From the NCBI GenBank assembly GCA_030390025.1, contig CM059432.1, positions 13,764,001-13,828,000 of the forward strand: 64,000 nt of DNA, written 5' to 3'. Below the pieces are notes generated by a model. The model was given only the letters and a program-made list of their open reading frames with translations, made no database searches and was not told where the DNA came from. Below are positions 11,190-63,347 of this stretch, in pieces; within the stretch, counting starts at the first letter, position 1; the number at the start of each line of letters is the position of its first letter. Position numbers and translations under genes: made by a program. This stretch comes from Squalus acanthias. Taxonomy: Eukaryota.

Positions 11190-12820
11190 ATAGTATTTAC
11201 AGTACAGAAACAGGGCATTCGGCCCTACAGGTCTATGCCGGTATTTATGCTCCACACGAGCCTTACTTCATCTCAACCTATCTTTCTATTCCCACCTCCC
11301 TCAGAAAACAGCGAGTTGTGGTAAATGGCTGTTTTTCAGACTGGAGGATGGTAGACAGTGGTGTTACCCAAGGGTCAGTGCTGGGGCCACTGCTTTTTTT
11401 GATGTATATATAAATGACCTGGATATTGGAATACAGAGTAGAATTTCTAAATTTGCCGATGACACCAAACTTGGGGGTGTGGCAAACAGTGATGATGATA
11501 TCAATCAACTGCAACAGACATAGAAAGGCTAGCAGAATGGGCAGACAAGTGGCAGATGGAATTTAATAGATAAGTGTGAGGTGATGCATTTTGGCAGAAG
11601 GAACAGGGAGAGGCAATATACACTTAATGGCCCAGTTTTAAAGAGTGTGCAGGGACAGAGGGACCTGGGAGTTAATGTGCATAGGTCCCTGAAGGTGGCA
11701 GGACATATTGAGAGAGTGATTAACAAAGCATATGGGATCTTGGGCTTCAAAAATAGAGGTATTGAGTACAAAAGTAGAGAAGTTATGCTGAACCTTTTTT
11801 CAAGCACTGGTTAGGCCACAACTGGAGTATTGCGTCCAGTTCTGGTCACCACACTTTAGGAAGGATGTGAAGGCCCTTGACAGGGTGCAGAGGAGATTTA
11901 CCAGAATGGTTCCAGGGATGGGGGGATCTTAGCTACAAGGACAGGTTGGAGAAGCTGGATTTGTTTTCATTGGAGCAAAGGAGGTTGAGGGGTGATTTGA
12001 TAGAGGTGTACAAGATTATGACGGGTTTGGATAGGCTAGATGGGGAAAAAGCTGTTCCCAGTAGTTGATGGTACAAGGACTAGGGGACACAGATTTAAGA
12101 TTTTGGGCAAGAGATACAGGGGGGATGTGAAGAAAAACTTTTTTACGCAGCGAGTGGTGATGACCTGGAATTCACTGCCGACGGAAGTGGTGGAAGCGGA
12201 GACACTCAATGTTTTCAAGGGGAGACTGGATAGGCACTTGAGGGAAATAAACTTGCAGGGCTACGGGGATAGAGCGGGGGAATGGGACTGACTGGATTGC
12301 TCTGCAGAGAGCCGGCATGGACTCGATGGGCCTCCTTCTGTGCCGTTATGACTCTCTGACTCTATGTACTTATCTAGCTTTCCCTTAAAATGCATCCATA
12401 CTATTCACCACAATTACTCCATGTGGTAGCAAGTTCCACATTCTAACCATTCTCTGAGTAAAGAAGTTTCTCCTGAATTCCTTACTGGTTTTATTAGTGA
12501 CCATCCTATATTTATGGCCCCTCGTTTTGGACTCCCCCACAAGTGGAAACATCTTCTCTACATCTACCCTATCTAACCCCTTCATAATTTTGAAGACCTC
12601 TAAGGTCACCTTTCAGTCTTCCATTTTCTAGAGAAAAGAGCCCAAGCCGCTTTAGTCTTTCCTGATAGGTTATAACCTCTCAGTTCTGGTATCATCCTTG
12701 TGAATCTTTTTTGCACCTTCTCCAGTGCCTCTATATCCTTTTTGTCATATGGAGACCAGAATTGAGCATAGTACTGTTATGGTTCTATACAAGTTTAACA
12801 TAACTTCTCCGATATTGAAC
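11190..12820 (-). mobile_element. CR1 3' fragment (11190-11295 and 12366-12820) split by a younger CR1
   Basis: The two halves join into the same 3' end seen uninterrupted at 62260-62705; SKTRGHKYRM...RRNFFTQR. Confidence 0.8.
11298..12365 (+). mobile_element. CR1 LINE 3' ~1.07 kb, young subfamily (nested)
   Basis: RKQRVVVNG...GVTQGSVLGPLLF, KFADDTKL, TRGHRFKI; near-identical to 43511-44548; TGACTCT-type tail. Confidence 0.92.
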
Positions 12821-14404: not shown

Positions 14405-14712
14405 AGAAAGCAGGAACACTCTGTATTTGTATATCACCTTTCACTACCTCAGGACAGCCCAAAGTGCTTTCCAGCCAATGAAGTACTTTTGAAGTGTAGT
14501 CACTGTTGTAATGTAGGAAACATGGCAGCCAATTTGCAGACAGCAAGCTCCCACAAACAGCAAGGTGATAATGACCAGATAATTGTTTTTGTGAAGGAAT
14601 AAATATTGGCCAGGGATAACTCCCCAGCTCTTCTTCGAATCGTGCCATGGCATCTTTTATGTCCACCTGAGAGGGCAGAGGGGGGCCTCGGTTAACGTCT
14701 CATCCAAAAGGT
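14405..14712 (-). mobile_element. Deu-domain SINE, 5'-truncated
   Basis: GGATGAGACGTTAACCGAGG...AAAAGATGCCATGGCAC...GAAGAAGAGC body and tail shared with 42620-43066. Confidence 0.85.
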
Positions 14713-14789
14713 ACCGAACTATATAGTCCAGGAAGGTCCCAGATTTGATTTCTAGCATTTAGTTCGCCAAGTTAAGCCCCTCCCTTCGT

Positions 14790-14995: not shown

Positions 14996-16227
14996 TTGAT
15001 TAATGGAATGAAGAAAAACTTTCCAGTGTAGAGAGATAACATGGCCAAACTGCAGTCCATTCCATTTCCATCTAACTCATTATTTTCTTTTTGCAATTGG
15101 GTTTGACCATTTGAATTTCTTGGGCTTGGGGCTCGGAAGAGACTGTTCTCATTGGTAGACAAATCCTAAATTTACTAATTTGGAAGCAGCACTGAGAACA
15201 CACCAATCCAAGCTAACAGGCCTGCTAAATTCAAACAGATGAACCTAGTGGCATAAAACCCCCACAAACAGAGCAGCAAATTTAAAGCATCTCATCAAAT
15301 TCAAACAAGGTTAAAGATGCAATTTACAATTTAAATTATATTTACAGCCTCTAGTACTCTGTTGTTCTACTGCTATGTTGTTGATGCTGCAAGAACCAAG
15401 ATGCGCATCTTACAAACTTAAGATAACAAGTTGTATATTTTCACTCAATGTGATATGAGGAAATACCAACATTAATAAAAATGGAGACCATTTTCACATT
15501 CACTGTTGCTTTTTGTGAAGCAAGGATCAGTCCTGCTGAGAATACCTGCCATTTAGTTGCTTGTTCAATATTTGGTGGGCTTCTAGAAGACCCATCACAG
15601 GAATGGCTAACCTTATGGAGCTAGAGTCTGGATACACGTCAAAACCATTGAATGGGCCACAGACGATTATACAAAAATGCAAGACTCCCATTTGAAAAAA
15701 AGAGCGAGACCCACCATTGAGAAAAACTGAGGTCCCCCATACACAAAGATTCCAAGAACCTTTATACACAAAAAAATCCACATCTCCATATACAAAGAAT
15801 TCAAGTTCTTCCTTGTAAACTTCAGCTCTTCAAAGTTCCTGGGTCTTTTTTGACCAATCAGGTTGCAGCCTTTTCCAGACTTTCAGATACATCATATTTT
15901 AACAGGTGAAGTCAAAATCAGGTTTGCGCACAAACTTGAAGAAACGAACCTGCAAGAGTTTCGCAGGCCAGATCAAAACAAACTTGTGGGCTGCACTTGG
16001 CCCATAAGCTGTGCCTTCAATATTCTTGTCCTACTGTATCCACCAATGTCCTATTTAGACCTAGAAGGCAAATGGTATGTTGGCCTTCGTAGCGAGAGGG
16101 TTTGAGTACAGGAACAAGGATGTCTTGCTGCAGTTGTCATGATGCGGAGATGCCGGTGTTGGACTGGGGTGGACAAAATTGAGAGGTCGCACAACACCAG
16201 GTTATAGTCCAACAGTTTTATTTGAAA

Positions 16228-16265
16228 TCACAAGCTTTCGGAGCTATCGCTCCTTCCTCAGGTGA
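16228..16265 (-). ncRNA. Minimal type I hammerhead ribozyme (identical copy in the opposite arm)
   Basis: Exact reverse complement of 16833-16870. Confidence 0.8.
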
Positions 16266-16832
16266 AGTAAATTGGATACAGAATCGCCAGAGCATATATA
16301 GATGGAAAAAAAACATGTGTACTTTACAATTGCAGACCAATAAATTAAATCATCCTGACTATCTGCCGAGGTGTGATAAAGTTAATTAAGTCAGCCAGGA
16401 AGGTACCACATCAAAAGACATAGCAAGATACAACTGAGACAATGAGGTGTAGTCGCAGGGGTTCCAACGTGTCAAAAGCATCACGATACATGACGTGATC
16501 CGGACTCGAGTCGTCGTTAGCTTGTTCACAGATGTGATTCCCAGTAAAAAAGTAAAAATTTTCCCAGTAAAAAAGTAAATTTTTTTTTAAAGCTTTTCGT
16601 TTTACATACAGACGGCAGCTTTTGACACGTTGGAACCCCTGCGACTACACCTCATTGTCTCAGTTGTATCTTGCTATGTCTTTTGATGTGGTACCTTCCT
16701 GGCTGACTTAATTAACTTTATCACACCTCGGCAGATAGTCAGGATGATTTAATTTATTGGTCTGCAATTGTAAAGTACACATGCTTTTTTTTCCATCTAT
16801 ATATGCTCTGGCGATTCTGTATCCAATTTACT

Positions 16833-16870
16833 TCACCTGAGGAAGGAGCGATAGCTCCGAAAGCTTGTGA
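16833..16870 (+). ncRNA. Minimal type I hammerhead ribozyme (PLE-type)
   Basis: Stem I UCAC, core CUGAGGA, A, stem II GGAGC-GAUA-GCUCC, GAAA, palindromic AGCU stem III, predicted cleavage after CUU, then GUGA closing stem I. Confidence 0.8.
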
Positions 16871-17609
16871 TTTCAAATAAAACTGTTGGACTATAACCTG
16901 GTGTTGTGCGACCTCTCAATTTTGCTGCAGTTGTACAGGGCCTTGGTGAGACCACATCTTGAGTATTGTGTGCAGTTTTGGTCGTCTTATCTGAGGAAGG
17001 AGGTTCTTGCCATGGAGGGAGTGCAGCGAAGATTCACCAGGCTGATACCTGGGATGGCAGGAATGACATATGAGGAGAGATTGGGTCGATTAGGCTTATA
17101 CTCGCTGGAGTTTAGAAGAATGAGAGGGGATCTCATTGAAACTTATAAAATTCTGACAGGACTGGACAGACTAGATGCAGGAAGGATGTTCCCGATGGTC
17201 AGGGGAGTCCAGAACCAGGGGTCACAGTCTAAGGATAAGGGGTAAGCCATTTAGGACAGAAATGAGGAGGAATTTCTTCACCCAGAGAGTGGTGAACCTG
17301 TGGAATTCTCTACCACAGAAGGCAGTAGAGGCCAATTCATTAAATATATTCAAGAAGGAGTTGGATATATTTCTTAAGGCTAAAGGGATCAAGGGATATG
17401 GGGAGAAAGCAGGGACAGGGTTCTGAATTTGGATGATCAGCCACGATCGCATTGAATGGCGGAGCAGGCTAGAGGGGCCGAATGGCCTACCTATGTTTCT
17501 ACATAGGTTTTGGGCATTCATGCTTCCCTGTTTTTTGAGCTACTTAAGAACAGTCATGTTCTCCCTCTTTATCATCCCTAATCTGTACTGGAATCAGACT
17601 GCTCCCAAT

Positions 17610-23504: not shown

Positions 23505-24260
23505 AACAAGAGAAAGCCTAATCATTCCCCCTTGACCTTCAATTACACCATTAGCACCAAGTTTCCCACCATCAACATCTTGGGAATCACTATTGACCAG
23601 CAGCTTAACACCATGGCTGCAAGAGCAGGGCAGAGACAGGGTATTCTGCTAAGAGTGACTCACCTACTGACCTCTCAAAGACTATCCACCAACTGCAAGG
23701 CTCAAGGAGTGTGATGGAATACAAAACCACTCACCTGGATAGGTGCCGTTGCAACCAGGAGCTCAGTGCTTTGCTTGATCAGTGCCCCTGCCCTCCTCTC
23801 CACTAATGGTGCACTGTGGCTGCTGTATCTACATCAACAGGATTCATTGCATCAACTCCCTAAAGTTACTTCAACAGCACCTCCCTCTCCCAAGACCTCT
23901 ACCATCAAATGTGAGAAGTCGCACATTTGTCCACCCCAGTCCAACACCGGCATCTCCACATCATCTCTACCATCAAGAAAGACAAGAGCAGCAATGTCAT
24001 GGGAACATTACTGAACAGCAAAGCTCCCAAAGTTCTGGTGAAAAAAGTTACATACTATCTTGACTTGGACATATATTGCCATTTCTTCAGTGTCACTGGG
24101 CTAATATCCTAGAATTTCCTAACACCATTGTGGGAGCGCCATCACCACAAGGACTGCAGTGGTTCAAGGAGAAGACCAATCACCACCTTTTCAGGGCAAC
24201 TAGAGATGGGCAATAAATACAGCCTTGCTGGAAGCGGGTACATCCTAAGAACAAAACCAA
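23505..24260 (+). mobile_element. Second CR1-group LINE family, 3' fragment
   Basis: NHSPLTFN..FPTINILGITIDQ; 3' tail CACCACCTTTTCAGGGCAACTAGAGATGGGCAATAAAT. Confidence 0.8.
23909..23964 (+). mobile_element. 56-bp mini PLE insertion (collapsed hairpin + tail) with 12-bp TSD
   Basis: TSD CTCTACCATCAA at 23897-23908 and 23965-23976; tail TCCACCCCAGTCCAACACCGGCATCTCCACATCAT is the reverse complement of 16139-16173 with one mismatch; 8-bp IR CAAATGTG/CACATTTG. Confidence 0.85.
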
Positions 24261-24814
24261 AAAAGGGGGTGGTAGAAAGAAATATAATCACTTTATGTTA
24301 TAGTTCTCTGAATCTTCACATTTGGAGATCAATTTTTGAATGGACTGACTTGGATCCCTTTGCAGCAGCAACCTTGTCCTAAACTAAAAAAAATTATACA
24401 TTCATCAGACTGTCATTTGATACTATGTAGTACCAGAGACAAGTGTGTGTTCAGGTCAGAGCTGAATTGGAATCCAGCTTTAAGCTACATTTTTAAGATT
24501 TAAGAATTGGGTGGGGGGCAGTGGTGATGTGGTGTTGCAACAAGGCCATTTCCAAAAGCTTTGAAACTTTTACCATTGAATAGCAAAGCTCCCAAAGTTC
24601 TGGTGAAAAAAGTCAGCAGTGGCAGATCATGGTCAAGATGGATTTAAAAAAATACCAGGAAGCTTCAAAATAGGGGATGAGAAAAGTTGAAATGGACTGT
24701 CTTGATGTTTGGAAGCTGAGTTTTCAGCTCTGAAACCCAAGAGATTGGAAACTAACCAAAACCAAACACTTAAGCTGTAACATGATACTGATTACATACT
24801 GCACGTTAAGGCAT

Positions 24815-24920
24815 GAAAAGAAAGATATGCATTTCACCTTTCATGACCTCAGGACATCCCAAAGCACTTTACAGCCAATGAAGTACTTTTGAAGTGTAGT
24901 CGCTGTTGTAATGTAGGAAA
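24815..24920 (-). mobile_element. Deu-domain SINE 3' tail fragment
   Basis: ACAGCCAATGAAGTACTTTTGAAGTGTAGTCGCTGTTGTAATGTAGGAAA. Confidence 0.8.
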
Positions 24921-32409: not shown

Positions 32410-32830
32410 GTCAGCTGTGGCTCAGTGGCAGCACTCTTGTCTCTGAGTCAGAAGGTTCTGGGTTCAAGTCCCACTCCAGGGACTTGAGCACAAAAATCTA
32501 GGCTGACACTCCAGTGCGGTACTGACTTTCGGATGAGACGTTAAACCAAGGCCATCTACCCTCTCAGGTGGACGTAAAAGATCCCATGGCACTATTTCGA
32601 AGAGGAGCAGGGGTGTCCACCCTCAGTGTCCTGCCAATATATATCCCTCTACCACCATCACAAACAGATTATCTTGTCAATACTACACTGCTGTACGTGG
32701 GACCTTGCTGTGCACAAATTGGCTACCGCGTTTCCTACGTTACAACAGTCAAAAGTACTTAATTGGCTGTAAAGTGCTTTGGAATGTCCTAGGTCATGAA
32801 TGGCACTATATAAATGCAAATCTTTCTTTC
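32410..32830 (+). mobile_element. Deu-domain tRNA SINE (SacSINE1-like), near full length
   Basis: A box TGGCTCAGTGG, B box GGTTCAAGTCC, Deu core GGATGAGACGTTAAACC...AAAGATCCCATGGCACT, L2-like tail ending TATAAATGCAA(TCTT)n. Confidence 0.88.
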
Positions 32831-33529
32831 TATTTGTACCATCACTAACCTACATGCAAAACTTTATGTACAAGGTAAATTTCCAAAACTTATGACAAGT
32901 TGACTTATTTTGCAGTTTTTCATTAAAGTAGTGTACTGTTTTGCAACTAGTAATACTATATGGCCATGAAACCATCACCCCGAAGGCAGGCTGCATCCCT
33001 GGCTGGATATCCACCCACCCAGCCGCCCACATGACCCAAAACCAGCTTACAGCAATGCTATTGATGGTGTCACCAACTTCTCCAGCAGTGTTGTAAATAG
33101 GTGATTTTCCCTATCATCTTTGAAGACAACAGTGCTGCTAGTAGCAAAAGTAGAGGCTGCTATTGTTGCTGGCTGCCATTTTTTCTGTCTGAGCAATGCA
33201 GTTTCCTGATCATTAAGCCTGTATGGATCTTTCTCAGCAACTGGGAAGAAATGGCTTCCAGAAATAAAGTAGCAAATAACAATTTTAAAACAAATGCACG
33301 TACACAAGTTGTACATGCAGGACGATCTGTTGCTCCAATGCTATGGAAACTGCCCTGCAACGTAAACAGGAAGGATTCCATTTAATTGGGAAACCCAGGC
33401 ATTGCACAAGTGCTTCTTGAAGTGGTTCTGTACTATAAAAGAAGATAAAATTGATGGTGTAGAAGCAGAAAACATATGTTTAAAGTTCATAAGAAGTGAG
33501 AGTTGTAAGAAATTTCTCTTACTCCCCCT

Positions 33530-40890: not shown

Positions 40891-42619
40891 GAATAACCCA
40901 AAACCAAATAAAATTTGTTACCAAGTATTAAGTTTGCTTGAAAACGAAACAGCAGAATTTATCAATATCCCCTGTATTGCAAATATTTCATCCAAGTTAT
41001 ATACAAGGTCAAACACAGTGATTATGCATTATAAAGTTTGAAATGTGAATTACTAGAAAACAAGTGCTAAAATCATTCAAAGCTTTATGAAAGTCAGCTG
41101 ATTTATTCTTTACGAAGCAGCTTGAAACTAGAAAAGTGACAAGATAGTGATTAAGGGAAGTCTACCAAAACTGCAGGAAACCGTGTCAGGGAGAGCCACA
41201 GATTCACCAGACTCATCACAATTCATGTTAATAATTTCAAGACCAATATGGTATATCATTTACAAAATCTGTTTTTGCTAAATCTAAAAATATCAAATTC
41301 AGCTTATGTGGGACAAACAAACCAACTGACCCTCAGAGAATCCAGATAAGACATATCAGCTGCTAAATGTATTCATTTGAAACTGTTCACTCCGTTATTT
41401 TGGTGGAGACATTGTCCAATTTATTTCAAATGTTCATACACTAGTACCCCATGGTATAATTTCATGGTCTGGGTTTCAATATTTACTTCTTTGCAATTCT
41501 GGCATACCCTTGTTAAAGCAATAATGCTTAATGATTGTTATGTAATTCTTCCTTATAACTGGAGCAAAACATCTTGACCTCCTATCTTTGAAAATAAACT
41601 TTAGTACCATCCATTTTTAAGCTACTGATGATTCCCAAAGTGCACATCAATTTCAGAAAAGCAGTTTTGTATTCACTTGAAGGTGATATATCTAAAATGT
41701 GGTGCATTATAAAAACAGATTTACAAATAATGACAAAATAGATTCCAGTATTACAACCCATTCAGGACAGTTTTGAATGGAGGGAGGGAGAGAGAAACTA
41801 GTTAAGGCCAAACATGACTAGCAAATGTCACTGTCTACGTTCTTGTACTAAAGATGTATGCATTTTATAATCCATGACAGTTCATGTAGATCTCTGAAGC
41901 ATCCAATCTAATTGAGGAAGAAGCGGAGAAATATTCGAAGTGAAAGGAATTCTCATTTTGTATGGAAAGGGCTGTAGATAGAACGTTTTGTATAATTTTT
42001 GCTTCATAAATGTTGTTTCGTAAATAGCAACATTTAGTAATTGACGAGTACCAGTGCTTGCCAATGCATAAGCAGCAGTAGCTTGGAGAACTTGAATGAA
42101 TAACATTTACACTGGTTATAAACTACTGAATAACTGTCCTTATTTTCATCCAGATACCAGAACAGGTTTCCAATGAAAATACATGGGGAATCTTGTCTTT
42201 TCTCCATTCATGTTAAGGATGTTGGTGAGGGGTAATGGAACACCAATTACACTTTCACCCAATGTTATTGTTGCAGTTTGGGGTTTAGCCACACCATATC
42301 TTGTCCAAATGACCTGAAGACAGTTTCCATAAATGGATTGTGAGAAGAACCAAAATAAGTATCTTTCACTTTCTGCCTCACATTCTGCCATGGATCTAAC
42401 AATAACCCTGATTGCAGGAAGATGTATTGGAATTTGCCTAGGATCCCCACTACATTTTCAGTTTCTCAGATGACAGAACATTACATTAAACCAGCTTTGG
42501 TTTAATTGAATTATTAGGTTAATAATTAAATTAACAATTGATAATTAAAACAGCAAATAAATTGGGCAAATACTATACGGCAGAATAAATAATTCTGCAT
42601 ATATGTAAGACAAGACAGA

Positions 42620-43066
42620 CAGACTTGCATTTATATAGCACCTTTCACGACCACCAGACGTCTCAAAGCCAATGAAGTCCTTCTGAAGTGGAGTCACTGT
42701 TGTAATGTGGGAAACATGGCAGCCAATTTGCGCACAGCAAGGTCCCACAAACAGCAATGTGAAAATGACCAGATAATCTGTTTTTGTTATGCTGGTTGAG
42801 GGATAAATATTGGCCAGGACACCAGGGATAACTCCCCTGCTCTTCTTCGAAATAGTGCCATGGGATCTTTTACATCCACCTGAGAGAGCAGATGGGGCCT
42901 CGGTTTAATGTCTCATCCGAAAGACGGCACCTCCGACAGTGCAGCACTCCCTCAGCACTGCACTGAAGTGACAGCCTAGCTTTATGTGCGCAAGTCCCTC
43001 GAGTGGGACTTGAACCCACAACCTTCTGACTCAGAGGCGAGTGTGCTACCAACTGAGCCACAGCTG
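42620..43066 (-). mobile_element. Deu-domain tRNA SINE (SacSINE1-like), full length
   Basis: A box TGGCTCAGTTGG, B box GGTTCAAGTCC, complete Deu core and tail; the 5'-most 14 bp are duplicated at 43073-43086. Confidence 0.92.
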
Positions 43067-43510: not shown

Positions 43511-44548
43511 TGACCTGGATATTGGAATACAGAGTAGAATTTCTAAATTTGCCGATGACACCAAACTTGGGGGTGTGGCAAACAGTGATGATGATACCAA
43601 CAGGACATAGAAAGGCTAGCAGAATGGACAGACAAGTGGCAGATGGAATTTAATACAGAGAAGTGTGAGGTAATGCATTTTGGCAGAAGGAACAGGGAGA
43701 GGCAATATACACTTAATGGCACAGTTTTAAAGAGTGTGTAGGGACAGAGGGACCTGGGAGTTAATGTGCATAGGTCCCTGAAGGTGGCAGGACATATTGA
43801 GAGAGTGGTTAACAAAGCATATGGGATCTTGGGCTTCATAAATAGAGGTGTTGAGTACAAAAGTAGAGAAGTTATGCTGAACCTTTATAAAGCGCTGGTT
43901 AGGCCACAACTGGAGTATTGCGTCCAGTTCTGGTCACCACACTTTAGGAAGGATGTGAAGGCCCTTGACAGGGTGCAGAGGAGATTTACCAGAATGGTTC
44001 CGGGGATGGGGGATCTTAGCTACAAGGACAGGTTGGAGAAGCTGGATTTGTTTTCATTAGAGCAAAGGAGGTAGAGGGATGATTTGATAGAGGTGTACAA
44101 GATTATGACGGGTTTGGATAGGCTAGAAAAGAAAAGACTTGCATTTATATAGCGCCTTTCACAACCACCAGACGTCTCAAAGCGCTGTACAGCCAATTAA
44201 ATACTTTTGAAGTGTAGTCACTGTTGTAGACGGGGAAAGGCTGTTCCCACTAGTTGATGTTACAAGGACTAGGGGACACAGATTTAAGGTTTTGGGCAAG
44301 AGATACAGGGGGATGTGAGGAAAAACTTTTTTTACGCAGCGAGTGTTGATGACCTGGAATTCACTGCCGACGGAAGTGATAGAAGCGGAGACACTCAATG
44401 TTTTCAAGGGGAGACTGGATATGCACTTGAAGGAAATAAACTTGCAGGGCTACGGGGATAGAGCGGGGGAATGGGATTGACTGGATGCTCTACAGAGAGC
44501 CGGCACAGACTCGATGGGCCGAATGGCCTCCTTCTGTGCCGTTATGAC
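43511..44548 (+). mobile_element. CR1 LINE 3' fragment, young subfamily
   Basis: Near-identical to 11416-12350; [19 protein letters not shown]. Confidence 0.92.
44128..44226 (-). mobile_element. Deu-domain SINE 3' tail inserted into the young CR1
   Basis: Absent from the sister copy (GGCTAGATGGGG at ~12034); flanked by TAGA on both sides. Confidence 0.85.
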
Positions 44549-51599: not shown

Positions 51600-51892
51600 A
51601 TCCGTTTTCAGACACGACATTAAATAAAAGTCCTGTCTACCCTCTTAGTTGGACATAAAAGATCCCGTGGAATTGTTTGAAGAATAGCAGGGGTGTTCTC
51701 GCAGTGTCCATGTCAACATTTATCCCTCAACCAACACCACTAAAAGGTTTTATAGGTAATTTATCTCATTGCAGTTTGTGGGATCTTGCTGTGAGCAAAT
51801 TGGATGCCACATTTCCCTGCATTATAACAGTGACTATACTTCAAAAGCACTTCATTGGCAGTGAAGCACTTTGGGATTTCCTGGCATTGTAA
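51600..51892 (+). mobile_element. Deu-domain SINE, decayed and 5'-truncated
   Basis: TAAAAGATCCCGTGG...GAAGAATAGCAGGGGTGTTC...CATTGGCAGTGAAGCACTTTGGGA. Confidence 0.78.
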
Positions 51893-55057: not shown

Positions 55058-55315
55058 CAGGCGCATGGGAACAACAGCACCACCTCCAAGTCACACACCA
55101 TCCTGGCTTGGAAGTATATCACCGTTCCTTCATCGTCACTGGGTCAAAATCCTGGAACTCCCTCCCTAACAGCACTGTGGGAGTACCTTCACCACAGGGA
55201 CTGCAGCGGTTCAAGGTGGTGGCTCACCACCACCTTCTCAAGGGCAACTAGGGATGGGCAATAAATGCTGGCCTTGCCAGCAACGCCCACATCCCATAAA
55301 TGAATAAAAAAAGAG
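55058..55315 (+). mobile_element. 3' terminal fragment of the second CR1-group LINE
   Basis: Matches 48095-48340, ending CCCACATCCCATAAATGAATAAAAAA. Confidence 0.88.
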
Positions 55316-55695: not shown

Positions 55696-58600
55696 TTAAA
55701 AATTTATTCATTCACGGGAAGTGGGCATTGCTGGCAACGCCAGCATTTATTGCCAATCCCCACCTCCCCTTGAGAAAGTGGAGGTGATCCACCTTCTTCA
55801 ACCGTTGCAGTCCGATGGTGAAGGTACTGAATGGTGCTGTTAGGGAGGGAGTTCAAGGATTGTGACCCAGTGGCGATGAAGGCGATATATTTCCAAGTCA
55901 GGATGGTGTGAGACTTGGAGGGGAACTTGGAGGTGGTGGCATTCCCATGTACCTGCTGGTCTAGTCCTTCTAGGTAGTAGAGGTCACTGGTTTGGGGGAC
56001 TTTAGTCTTCATATAGACTGGACAAATCAAATTGGCAAAGGTAGTCTGGGGGATGAGTTCATGGAATGCATTCGGGACAGTTTCCTAGAACAATATATCA
56101 AGGAACCAAACAGGGAACAGGCGATTTTAGATCTTGTATTGTGTAATGAGACAGGGTTAATTAGCAATCTCATAGTAAAGGATCCTCTGGGGCAGAGTGA
56201 TCATACTATGATAGAATTTTACATTAATTTTGAGAGTGACTTGCCGAAGTCTGAAACTAGAGCCTTAAACTTAAATAAAGCCAATTACATAGGTATGAGG
56301 GGTGAGTTGGCGAAGGTAGATTGGAAAAATAGATTAAAAGGTAAGGAGGTAGATAAGCAGTGGCTAGCATTTAAAGAAATATTTCATAATTCTTACCAAA
56401 AATACATTCCATTGAGAAACGAAACCTCCACGAGAAAAGTGATCTAACCGTGGCTAACTAAAGAAGTTAAGGATAGCATTAGATTGAAAGAAGAAGCTTA
56501 TAATGCAGCAAAGAATAATAGTAAGCCTGAGGATTGGGAGAGTTTCAGAAACCAGCAAAGGTTGACCAAAAAATTGATAAAAAAGGGAAAAAATAGAATG
56601 AATATAAAAACAGATAAGAGTTTCTACAAGTACGTAAAAAAGAAAAGAGTAGCAAAAGTAAACGTTGATCTCTTCGAGGCTGAGACAAGAGTAATTATTA
56701 TGGGGAATAAGGAAATGGCAGAAACGTTAAACAAATATTTTGTATCTGTCTTCACAGAAGACACAAAAAGCATACCAAAAATGGTGGGGAACCAAGGGTC
56801 TAATGAGGGTGAGGAACTTAATGTAATTAATATAAGTAGAGAAAAAGTACTAGAGAAAGTAATGGGACTAAAAGCCAACAAATCCCCTGGACCTAACGGC
56901 CTACATCCTAGGGCTCTAAAAGAGGTGGCTGAAGAGATAGTAGATGCATTGGTTTTGATCTTCCAAAATTCCCTAGATTCTAGAATGGTCCCAGCGGATT
57001 GGAAACTCGCAAATGTAACACCGCTATTCAAGAAAGGAGGGAGGGAGAGAAAAACCAGGGAACTATAGGCCAGTTAGTCTGACATCAGTTGTTGGGAAAA
57101 TGCTGGAATCCATTGTTAAGGAAGTGGTATCAAGTTCCTTAGAAAATCATAACATGATTCGGCAGAGTCAACATGGTTTTATGAAAGGGAAATCGTGTTT
57201 GACAAATTTATTAGAGTTTTTTGAGGATGTAACTAGCAGGGTAGATAAAGGGGAACCAGTGGATGTAGTATATTTGGGTTTCCAAAAGGCATTCGATAAG
57301 GTGCCACATAAAAGGTTATTACACAAGATAAGGGCTCATGGGGTTGGGAGTAATATAGTAGCATGGATAGCGGATTGGTTAACGGACAGAAAACAGAAAG
57401 TAGGGATAAACGGATCTTTTTCAGGTTGGCAGGCTGTAACTAGTGGGGTGCCGCAAGGATCAGTGTTGGGGCCTCAGCTATTTACAGTCTATATTAATGA
57501 CCTAGATGAAGGAACCGAGTGTAATGTATCCAAGTTTGCTGATGATTCAAAGCTAGGTGGGACAGTAAGCTGTGAGGAGAACACAAAGAGTCTGCAAAGG
57601 GATATAGATAGACTAAGTGAGTAGGCAGTAAAGTGGCAGATGGAGTATAATGTAGGGAAATGTGAGGTTATTCACTTTGGTAGAAAGAATAGAAAAAACA
57701 GAATATTTTTTAAATGGTGAGTAACTTTCAAATGTTGGTGTTCGGAGAGATTTGGGTGTCCTCGTGCATGAAACACAGAAAGCTAGCATGCAGGTACAGC
57801 AAGCAATAAGGAAGGCAAATGGCATGTTGGCCTTTATTGCAAGGGGTTTGGAGTATAAGAGTAAGGAAGTCTTGCTACAATTGTACAGGGCCTTGGTGAG
57901 ACCACACCTGGAGTACTGTGCACAGTTTTGGTCTCCTTATCTAAGGAAGGATATACTTGCCTTGGAGGCGGTGCAACGAAGGTTCACTAGATTGATTTCT
58001 GGGATGAGAGGGCTGTCCTATGATGAGAGATTGTGTAGAATGGGCCTATACTCTCTGGAGTTTAGAAGAATGAAAGGTGATCTCATTGAAACATACAAGA
58101 TTCTGAAGGGGATTGACAGGGTAGATGCGGAGAGGTTGTTTCCCTTTGCTGGAGTGTCAAGAACTAGGGGGCATAGTCTCAGGATAAGGGGTAGGCCATT
58201 TAAGACTGAGATGAGGAGGAATTTCTTCACTCAGGGTTGTGAATCTTTGGAATTCTCTGCCCCAGAGGGTTGTGAATGCTGAGTCTGAGTATATTCAAGG
58301 CTGAGATAGATAGATTGATTTTTGGAATCAAGGGATATGGAGTTTGGACGGGAAAGTGGAGTTGAGGTCGATCATCAGCCACGATCTTACTGAATGGCGG
58401 AGCAGGCTCGAGGGGCCGTATGGCCTACTCCTACTCTTATTTCTTATGTAAGCCTTGATGAGTTTCTGCAGTGCATCTTGTAAAAGGTACAAACTGCAGC
58501 CATGTTGCGCCACTGGTGGAGGAGGTGAACGTTTAGTGGTGGATGGGGTGTCAATTAAGCAGACTGCTTTGTTCTGGATGGTGTCGAGCTTCTTGAGTGT

Positions 58601-62705: not shown

Positions 62706-63251
62706 GTATATCTTCATGAAGAGGATGAATTTTAAGGCCGAAGACATTGTACTGTAATGATAGGCACATATAGATTATTAACTGAATAAGCTAGTTGGAC
62801 AATATTGAGCTAAATGGGTTGTTACGTTAAAACACATAGGTTTTTGATCACAGTGGGGGGGGGGGGGGGGCGGAAGTGCAAGAGAAAGAGATTACTGCAA
62901 TATAAAAAGGCCATAGGTTCTTGTTGCTATAGAGCACAACATCGAAGGTTTTCATAAAAGACTATAACTCGGGAAAAGCAATGATAGGAAGTAACGGCAT
63001 GGTGTGACAAAACGCGAGGCCCCACATTAGTCTAGCAATCTGTTCAAAGCTCCAAGGGTCATAAAACACCTAGTAGTATTAAATCCAGCAGGAACTAGAC
63101 CACAAAAGAAAATGGTATAAAAAGAGACACGTTTCACTCAGTAGAAGCTTTTGCCTACCTTCAAGACCAGGTAACGTCTTGATAAGATAAGCCATGCTCA
63201 CGATTTCCCCTAGAAGTTCCCTGCACAGATGGTTTTAAATGTAGGGCTAAA

Positions 63252-63347
63252 TAAAAGAAAGACTTGCATTTATATAACACCCTTCACGACCACCGGATGT
63301 CCCAAAGCGCTTTACAGCCAATGAAGTACTTTTTGAAGTTTAGGAAA
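63252..63347 (-). mobile_element. Deu-domain SINE 3' tail fragment
   Basis: GAAAGACTTGCATTTATATAAC...GCTTTACAGCCAATGAAGTACTTTT. Confidence 0.8.

Follow-up and report, generated by a model that had tools for sequence, protein, structure and literature searches.

Positions 16138 to 16921 of the window, that is, of the whole 64-kb stretch of DNA analysed here, are occupied by an insert of 784 nt, a candidate Penelope-like element (PLE) that splits a LINE relic (Table 1). When the two inverted arms of the insert (306 and 307 nt) were aligned, they proved free of substitutions and differed only by a single G, an indel next to an A8 run. The arms are separated by a spacer of 138 nt that contains an exact 19-nt direct repeat, a tail of 36 nt is attached to the outer side of the left arm only, and the insert is bounded by identical copies of the 13-bp sequence TTGCTGCAGTTGT, its target-site duplication (TSD). 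The arms, spacer, direct repeat, one-sided tail and TSD had all been listed in an earlier note on this DNA and were found as described there. The note had also regarded the insert as palindromic over its full 784 nt. A palindrome is present, but it spans 751 nt (16174 to 16924), and its final 3 nt (16922 to 16924), at the outer end of the right arm, also form the beginning of the TSD. On the minus strand, the order is TSD, inverted 3' end without tail, spacer, sense 3' end, tail, and TSD.

No other copy of the spacer was found in the 64-kb window, and its composition did not discriminate between the two strands. Small palindromes lie at one spacer junction, as the self-priming model discussed below would expect. 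Three further candidate features were discarded. A match in the spacer to the D. virilis promoter motif RGACGTGY (PMC2377424) was confined to a 6-nt core, pairing of the tail with the sequence just upstream in MFE folds was no better than in shuffles (z −0.76 and −0.88), and a sigma-70 promoter scan was set aside as irrelevant for eukaryotic DNA.

Table 1. Features of the palindromic insert, its host LINE and the second insertion (positions in the window).
Feature	Position	Strand	Details
Host LINE fragment	16063..17490	+	5'-truncated, frameshifted, split by the insert; 77–82% identical to sister copies
TSD, left copy, 13 bp	16125..16137		Single-copy empty site in sister LINEs
Putative PLE tail, 36 nt	16138..16173	−	Forms the 3' terminus of the sense strand; AC-rich, with ATG as its final bases; matches the tail of the second insertion at 34 of 35 positions
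Sense copy of pLTR / 3' end, 306 nt	16174..16479	−	Continuous with the tail
AATAAA	~16217–16222	−	Downstream of the minus-strand hammerhead
Minimal type I hammerhead	16228..16265	−	C3 at 16261, predicted cut after 16232; coordinates mirrored from the plus-strand copy
Spacer, 138 nt	16480..16617		Single in the window; either extra upstream element sequence from one of the two copies, or filler
Spacer contents			6-bp hairpin 16480–16499; 10-bp palindrome 16503–16512; 19-nt direct repeat 16538–16556 / 16561–16579; CpG o/e 1.84
Inverted, tail-less pLTR copy, 307 nt	16618..16924	+	TATATA at 16798, AATAAA at 16876
Minimal type I hammerhead	16833..16870	+	C3 at 16837, predicted cut after 16866
TSD, right copy	16922..16934
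TSD of second insertion, left copy, 12 bp	23897..23908		CTCTACCATCAA
Second insertion, 56 nt	23909..23964	+	Inverted arm of ~20 nt, few sense bases, 35-nt tail
Inverted arm of second insertion	23906–23925		First 3 nt common with the TSD
Tail of second insertion, 35 nt	23930–23964
TSD of second insertion, right copy	23965..23976

Insertion site, age and coding content

The TSD was examined by aligning the two flanks of the insert separately, and each flank mapped to three sister copies of the LINE within the window. Two of these sisters have a single-copy empty site, on which the flanks overlapped by 12–13 nt, and a short deletion affects this position in the third. Among random 60 × 60-nt flank pairs 780 nt apart, a shared run of at least 13 nt occurred in 1 of 3,000 draws. 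The 13-bp duplication is a genuine TSD. The match of the host LINE, which we take to belong to the CR1 clade, to its sisters begins at about 16063, and its frame changes near 17190. The LINE reading frame runs as ...RNKDVLLQL to the left of the insert and as LLQLYRALVRPHL... to its right. Hence, the earlier statement that the insertion lies in a CR1 reading frame holds insofar as a LINE frame flanks the insert, but no intact ORF was interrupted, because the host LINE was already 5'-truncated and frame-changed. Pfam searches with a selection of 15 frames (the 40-residue frame described below and 14 others, each a long open frame or a stretch of flank) identified RVT_1 alone in the sister LINE copies.

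The insert is young relative to the host LINE. With no substitutions at 306 sites, the upper 95% bound on arm divergence is 0.97%. CpG o/e is 0.75 for the element and 1.84 for the spacer, compared with 0.31 for the window and 0.32 for the adjacent host LINE; the value of the element is reached by 7 of the 317 overlapping 784-nt windows, some of which overlap the element itself. The youth assumed in the earlier note is thus borne out by the substitution-free arms, the identical TSD copies and the little depleted CpG.

The insert was also correctly described as devoid of coding sequence, as Pfam found no families in any of the six frames of the element. Patterns for PLE-type RT and GIY-YIG motifs gave no matches in the six frames of the 64-kb window, in a scan that used PLE and LINE motifs and is less sensitive than a whole-window Pfam search. 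The absence of RT and GIY-YIG would be expected of a copy that retains just the 3' 340–480 nt of the element. An antisense frame of 40 residues (16143–16262) was searched against longer proteins and gave no match at E ≤ 0.01; in the representatives library, 8 weak multi-stretch matches (34–42% identity over 25–29 residues) to proteins of 750–2450 aa were obtained and set aside. An open frame of 68 residues across the spacer (16414–16617, minus strand) was considered as an ORF end and was rejected, with no protein matches. A tail motif and an arm motif had no exact matches in a prokaryotic genome collection, and blastn searches of plasmid and phage collections gave no match; as all of these collections are devoid of animal genomes, the negative results do not bear on copy number.

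Hammerhead ribozymes in the two arms

A descriptor for minimal hammerheads matched twice in the 64 kb, once in each arm, and did not match at all in 300 dinucleotide shuffles searched on both strands. The two ribozymes are opposed and lie about 580 bp apart. The core (C3 U4 G5 A6 N7 G8 A9 / G12 A13 A14, A15.1-U16.1, H17) is intact. In the plus-strand copy, helices I and II comprise 4 and 5 bp, respectively, helix II is capped by a loop of 4 nt, an unpaired A is located between positions 9 and 10.1, followed by the G10.1-C11.1 pair, and a palindromic AGCU and U17 are present. These results agree with the earlier note in three respects, namely an intact minimal hammerhead in each arm, its dimer type, with the palindromic AGCU in place of helix III, and the cut after 16866, which the descriptor also predicts there. 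Rfam reported nothing at the gathering threshold in the 64 kb; at a relaxed threshold, a search of 1.1 kb gave a single match, to mir-879, which was rejected as a chance hit (E 2.7, 17 bits compared with a cut-off of 90).

The published consensus of minimal PLE hammerheads (Cervera and De la Pena 2014; PMC4209133, Fig. S3) consists of a U-rich leader, CUGANGAH, a G...C helix II, GAAA, a palindrome, UH and an AU-rich trailer. The insert shares with this group CUGANGAH, the unpaired base between 9 and 10.1, the G10.1-C11.1 pair, a short helix I, the palindromic AGCU, U17 and AU-rich flanks. The nearest row of Fig. S3 is that of the turtle Chrysemys picta, which has the same G-C-U-U, then CAAAUAAA, and differs from the insert in its helix sequences; no cartilaginous fish is among the rows of Fig. 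S3 that were compared.

The full-length RNA of either strand is predicted to fold into one hairpin (−599 kcal/mol, z −50), so that read-through RNA would form a duplex of about 300 bp. According to the equilibrium prediction, the pairing probability of helices I and II is 0.000 in the full-length RNA of either strand, in line with the earlier proposal that the ribozyme is masked in read-through RNA. For five partial transcripts, the same type of prediction gave probabilities of 0.92–0.999 for helix II and just 0.002–0.33 for helix I, values that the presence of a protein could alter. In read-through RNA entering from either side, the complement would be made first and would bury the ribozyme. 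We infer that the ribozyme would be silent unless transcription started inside the insert and help were available in trans. As the hammerheads are on opposite strands, they cannot dimerise in cis. Minimal hammerheads of this kind have been described as lacking cleavage as monomers and cleaving weakly as dimers (PMC4209133), and that of the anole PLE was reported to require protein for cleavage, while insertion in vitro did not depend on hammerhead cleavage (PMC11167929). Judging from the predicted folds, the 784-nt copy most likely has no catalytic activity and is inert, and we propose that its hammerheads are passengers of the duplicated pLTR.

The label 'retrozyme-like' given to the insert in the earlier note did not survive, as there is one hammerhead per strand and there are no tandem same-strand units; none of the 6 TRF rows represents a tandem same-strand hammerhead array. 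The insert has several properties in common with the animal non-LTR retrozymes (PMC7229834; bioRxiv 10.64898/2026.07.22.740005), namely the lack of coding sequence, the type I hammerhead, low GC, a long TSD and PLE ancestry. However, retrozymes are head-to-tail tandems with at least two same-strand ribozymes that release circular RNA, and are characterised by plentiful monomer RNA in linear and circular form, whereas the insert is head-to-head with one ribozyme per strand.

Relationship to known elements and a second insertion

Very probably, the insert is a young, 5'-truncated EN+ PLE insertion, the palindrome of which was built during its own insertion event. Its presumed PLE membership rests on structure and the ribozyme, not on homology. 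The PLE-type identity advocated earlier is supported by the PLE-consensus hammerhead, the one-sided tail of 30–40 nt, the variable, inverted, truncated copy and the TSD. A typical PLE has been described as carrying an inverted 5'-truncated copy beside the 5' end and a 30–40-bp tail at one end (PMC8557442), the inverted repeats of PLEs differ in size from copy to copy (PMC2377424), and minimal hammerhead pairs on opposite strands have been reported at distances of 100–700 bp, with most scattered motifs linked to truncated PLEs (PMC4209133). Accordingly, the combination of an inverted copy, a one-sided tail and a TSD, which the earlier note had treated as unusual, is the usual form of a PLE insertion, and opposed hammerhead pairs have been published. 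The architecture of the insert is an already known PLE form, and the locus is an additional example of it. With the EN+ PLEs of the Penelope/Poseidon and Neptune clades, it shares the truncated and inverted copy, the 30–40-nt tail, the TSD, and a hammerhead and a TATA-like motif in the repeat; it differs from them in the lack of an ORF or coding remnant, and the TSDs in this window (12–13 bp) are longer than the 8–10 bp reported for Adineta PLEs (PMC3846280). A literature search for Eulor/hairpin papers retrieved none.

The description of the insert as a non-autonomous element is unproven, because a 5'-truncated autonomous PLE that kept 340–480 nt of its 3' end would also be without RT and GIY-YIG. 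The locus itself, an inactive remnant within a defunct LINE and of a previously reported form, is of little import. The insert marks a PLE family that was active recently in this genome and from which a full-length active element could be recovered.

Searches with BLASTN and nhmmer retrieved one further member of the family in the window, an insertion of 56 nt that was absent from the earlier note and sits in another LINE relic, 7 kb from the palindrome. The tails of the two insertions are identical at 34 of 35 positions. The first 20 nt of the second insertion match the start of the inverted arm at 17 of 20 positions, compared with 14 of 21 under a plain sense reading, and its variant bases occur twice, once in each orientation, within an inverted pair of 8 bp that is free of mismatches. 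The second insertion is of the same design as the first, with an inverted arm of about 20 nt instead of 307 nt. Given this difference in arm length, the palindrome is probably not a fixed unit that is copied whole, but is made anew at each insertion. Alternatively, the second insertion could be a sense copy with a small secondary inversion, the region before the tail being weakly self-complementary.

The inverted arms of both insertions start at the same base of the element, 3 nt before the tail boundary, and in both cases the missing CAA is supplied by the TSD. Both empty sites read CAA|GA on the strand of the inverted arm; on the opposite strand, the sequences around the two nicks have nothing in common. 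The chance agreement of two random window 3-mers has P 0.018, that of two 5-mers P 0.0013, and the occurrence of CAA at both of two fixed sites P 0.00047, all three values being post hoc and based on n = 2.

Origin of the inverted copy

The formation of PLE inverted repeats was described as still undefined in PMC8557442, and the two insertions provide a sharp and cheap test of it. We propose two-ended priming from both target strands, with start sites that bracket the tail, a model for which the arguments on the two sides are nearly in balance. Its molecular version, which is more tentative, comprises a dimeric PLE particle, a staggered cut, CAA:UUG pairing at the CAA|GA nick and a microhomology join. 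According to this proposal, a PLE protein acting in trans would nick both target strands 12–13 nt apart, leaving two 3' overhangs. One of the 3' ends would prime reverse transcription at the distal start site, the end of the tail, and the other, which ends in CAA, would pair with UUG at the proximal start site, the tail boundary. The CAA-primed strand would copy the same 3' region again, either from a second RNA or from a tandem copy. The two cDNAs would then converge, stop at different lengths, and be joined by a few paired bases and filled in, so that the spacer would represent the difference in cDNA length; the joining microhomology of the second insertion would be CACA. A single reaction would in this way generate the head-to-head repeat, the spacer, the one-sided tail and the TSD, and neither an antisense template nor self-priming would be needed.

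Several in vitro properties of Poseidon of Anolis carolinensis (PAc) bear on this proposal (PMC11167929). The purified anole protein was reported to cleave and extend both strands and was modelled as a dimer, and two RT start sites bracket the tail. In addition, the AC-rich tail of PAc lies between two insertion end-points downstream of the hammerhead, and the same holds true for the family described here, with end-points 58 and 94 nt after the hammerhead cut site. However, in the experiments reported for PAc, the start site was not homologous to the cut DNA, ATT was preferred, and the start sites did not differ between the strands, whereas both proximal junctions described here share CAA with the target. 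These findings count against the proposal, because the 3-nt pairing was not seen there. A further difference is that the ORF of PAc begins inside the ribozyme; here, the ribozyme is devoid of ATG, and an ATG forms the end of the tail. Should a fixed start base and pairing through CAA prove general across hundreds of copies, the activity of the anole enzyme in vitro, with its two sites and two strands, would be connected to the structure of genomic insertions. Searches of the literature available outside of subscription journals retrieved no model of PLE inversions that invokes two-ended priming.

In LINE-1 twin priming, the second strand of the target serves as a primer, which results in a 5' inversion that is joined by microhomology. 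LINE-1 inverts its sequence without duplication, whereas the present family carries its 3' region in duplicate, with a fixed base for the second start, so that two templates or a tandem RNA would be required.

Self-priming, with the same PLE origin, appears less probable, though not remote. In this case, a PLE cDNA or an antisense template would fold back at a short palindrome and copy itself, the product would be joined to the target by microhomology, and the spacer would be the fold-back loop. This mechanism has been published for PLE head-to-head repeats with junction palindromes (Arkhipova et al. 2013; PMC3846280), and a 6-bp hairpin and a 10-bp palindrome are indeed located at the left arm of the insert. 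The lack of substitutions between the arms and the small hairpin formed by the second insertion are also consistent with it. However, self-priming alone leaves unexplained why, in two of two insertions with a 15-fold difference in arm length, the inverted arm terminates at an identical base located 3 nt from the tail boundary, whereas a protein-defined start site accounts for the fixed base. Furthermore, the folding of the spacer was no better than that of shuffles (z −0.50 and 0.84), and a loop of 138 nt is a long fold-back distance.

It is quite improbable that the palindrome is a fixed master, that is, a non-autonomous MITE- or retrozyme-like family with a 784-bp palindrome that is copied whole by a PLE enzyme, which was the reading of the earlier note. 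The lack of a coding remnant in any frame would fit this view, putatively non-autonomous PLE derivatives have been described (PMC8557442), and animal retrozymes have been traced to PLE pLTRs (bioRxiv 10.64898/2026.07.22.740005). Yet the sole other family member in the 64 kb differs in arm length, the unit-length transcript would form the hairpin of −599 kcal/mol with its 3' region buried up to the tail, and the tandem same-strand ribozymes that a retrozyme requires are lacking. In a weaker form of this explanation, the template RNA may have come from a non-coding PLE derivative, and the inversion would still have been made at insertion.

Very little speaks for an old insertion in which gene conversion, or selection on the hairpin RNA as an exapted source of dsRNA or small RNAs, would have maintained the identity of the arms. 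The predicted duplex of about 300 bp in read-through RNA would suit such a role, and PLEs give rise to small RNAs in Adineta (PMC3846280), but the TSD copies are identical, the CpG o/e values of the element and the spacer are far above that of the adjacent host LINE, and conversion between the arms would leave the spacer unprotected. Lastly, although PLEs are known to be prone to misassembly at long, nearly perfect inverted repeats (PMC8557442) and the lone indel beside a homopolymer may be a read error, an assembly or sequencing fold-back artefact is hardly conceivable, as the insert has a unique spacer and a tail on one side only, the empty sites validate the TSD, the host LINE resumes exactly after it, and the layout recurs in the independent 56-bp insertion.

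Signals in the arms and the end of the tail

In both arms of the main copy, the 784-nt palindromic Penelope-like element (PLE) insert, the motif AATAAA lies 10 nt downstream of the predicted cut site of the hammerhead ribozyme, so that the locus, judged from its sequence, would carry outward-facing polyadenylation signals on both strands. Each arm also contains TATATA, about 35 nt upstream of the ribozyme core.

On the minus strand, the exact terminus of the 36-nt tail is an ATG (16138–16140). In other PLEs, the tail is placed within the start of an ORF in passages of two reports (PMC11167929, PMC3846280); by analogy, the autonomous element may use this terminal ATG as its start codon. The tail of the second insertion ends one base short of that of the main copy.

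The second insertion and its surroundings

This further PLE-like insertion (23897–23976; 56 bp, with a 12-bp TSD) belongs to the same family as the main copy, has the same tail together with a miniature inversion, and is drawn into the main argument on the PLE-like insertion. A 37-bp stretch occurs twice nearby (24012–24048 and 24577–24613; 36/37 identical, spacing 565 bp). Its first copy, about 35 nt beyond the TSD, splits the LINE relic that also hosts the second insertion; this copy may have been inserted from a local template.

Other repeats in the window

At least seven copies of a short repeat family, 73–90% identical, are scattered through the window. The family appears similar to an old vertebrate SINE core; an ARAGORN search across the 64-kb window found no tRNA.

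Arm motifs and copies of the short repeat
Feature	Position	Remark
TATATA	16798–16803	motif in arm, mirrored in left arm
AATAAA	16876–16881	motif in arm, mirrored in left arm
Short repeat copy	14422–14720	
Short repeat copy	24809–24920	
Short repeat copy	32412–32835	
Short repeat copy	42617–43066	
Short repeat copy	44120–44228	
Short repeat copy	51602–51883	
Short repeat copy	63248–63343	

The LINE RT fragments at 11415–12352 and 43511–44548 share 92–95% identity, whereas the other pairs in the window are far less similar (mostly 64–90%); the two fragments may belong to a younger subfamily or have arisen by local duplication. Two copies of a LINE 3' end in opposite orientation (55083–55308 and 55703–55921; 84% identical, about 400 bp apart) are an ordinary older inverted pair.
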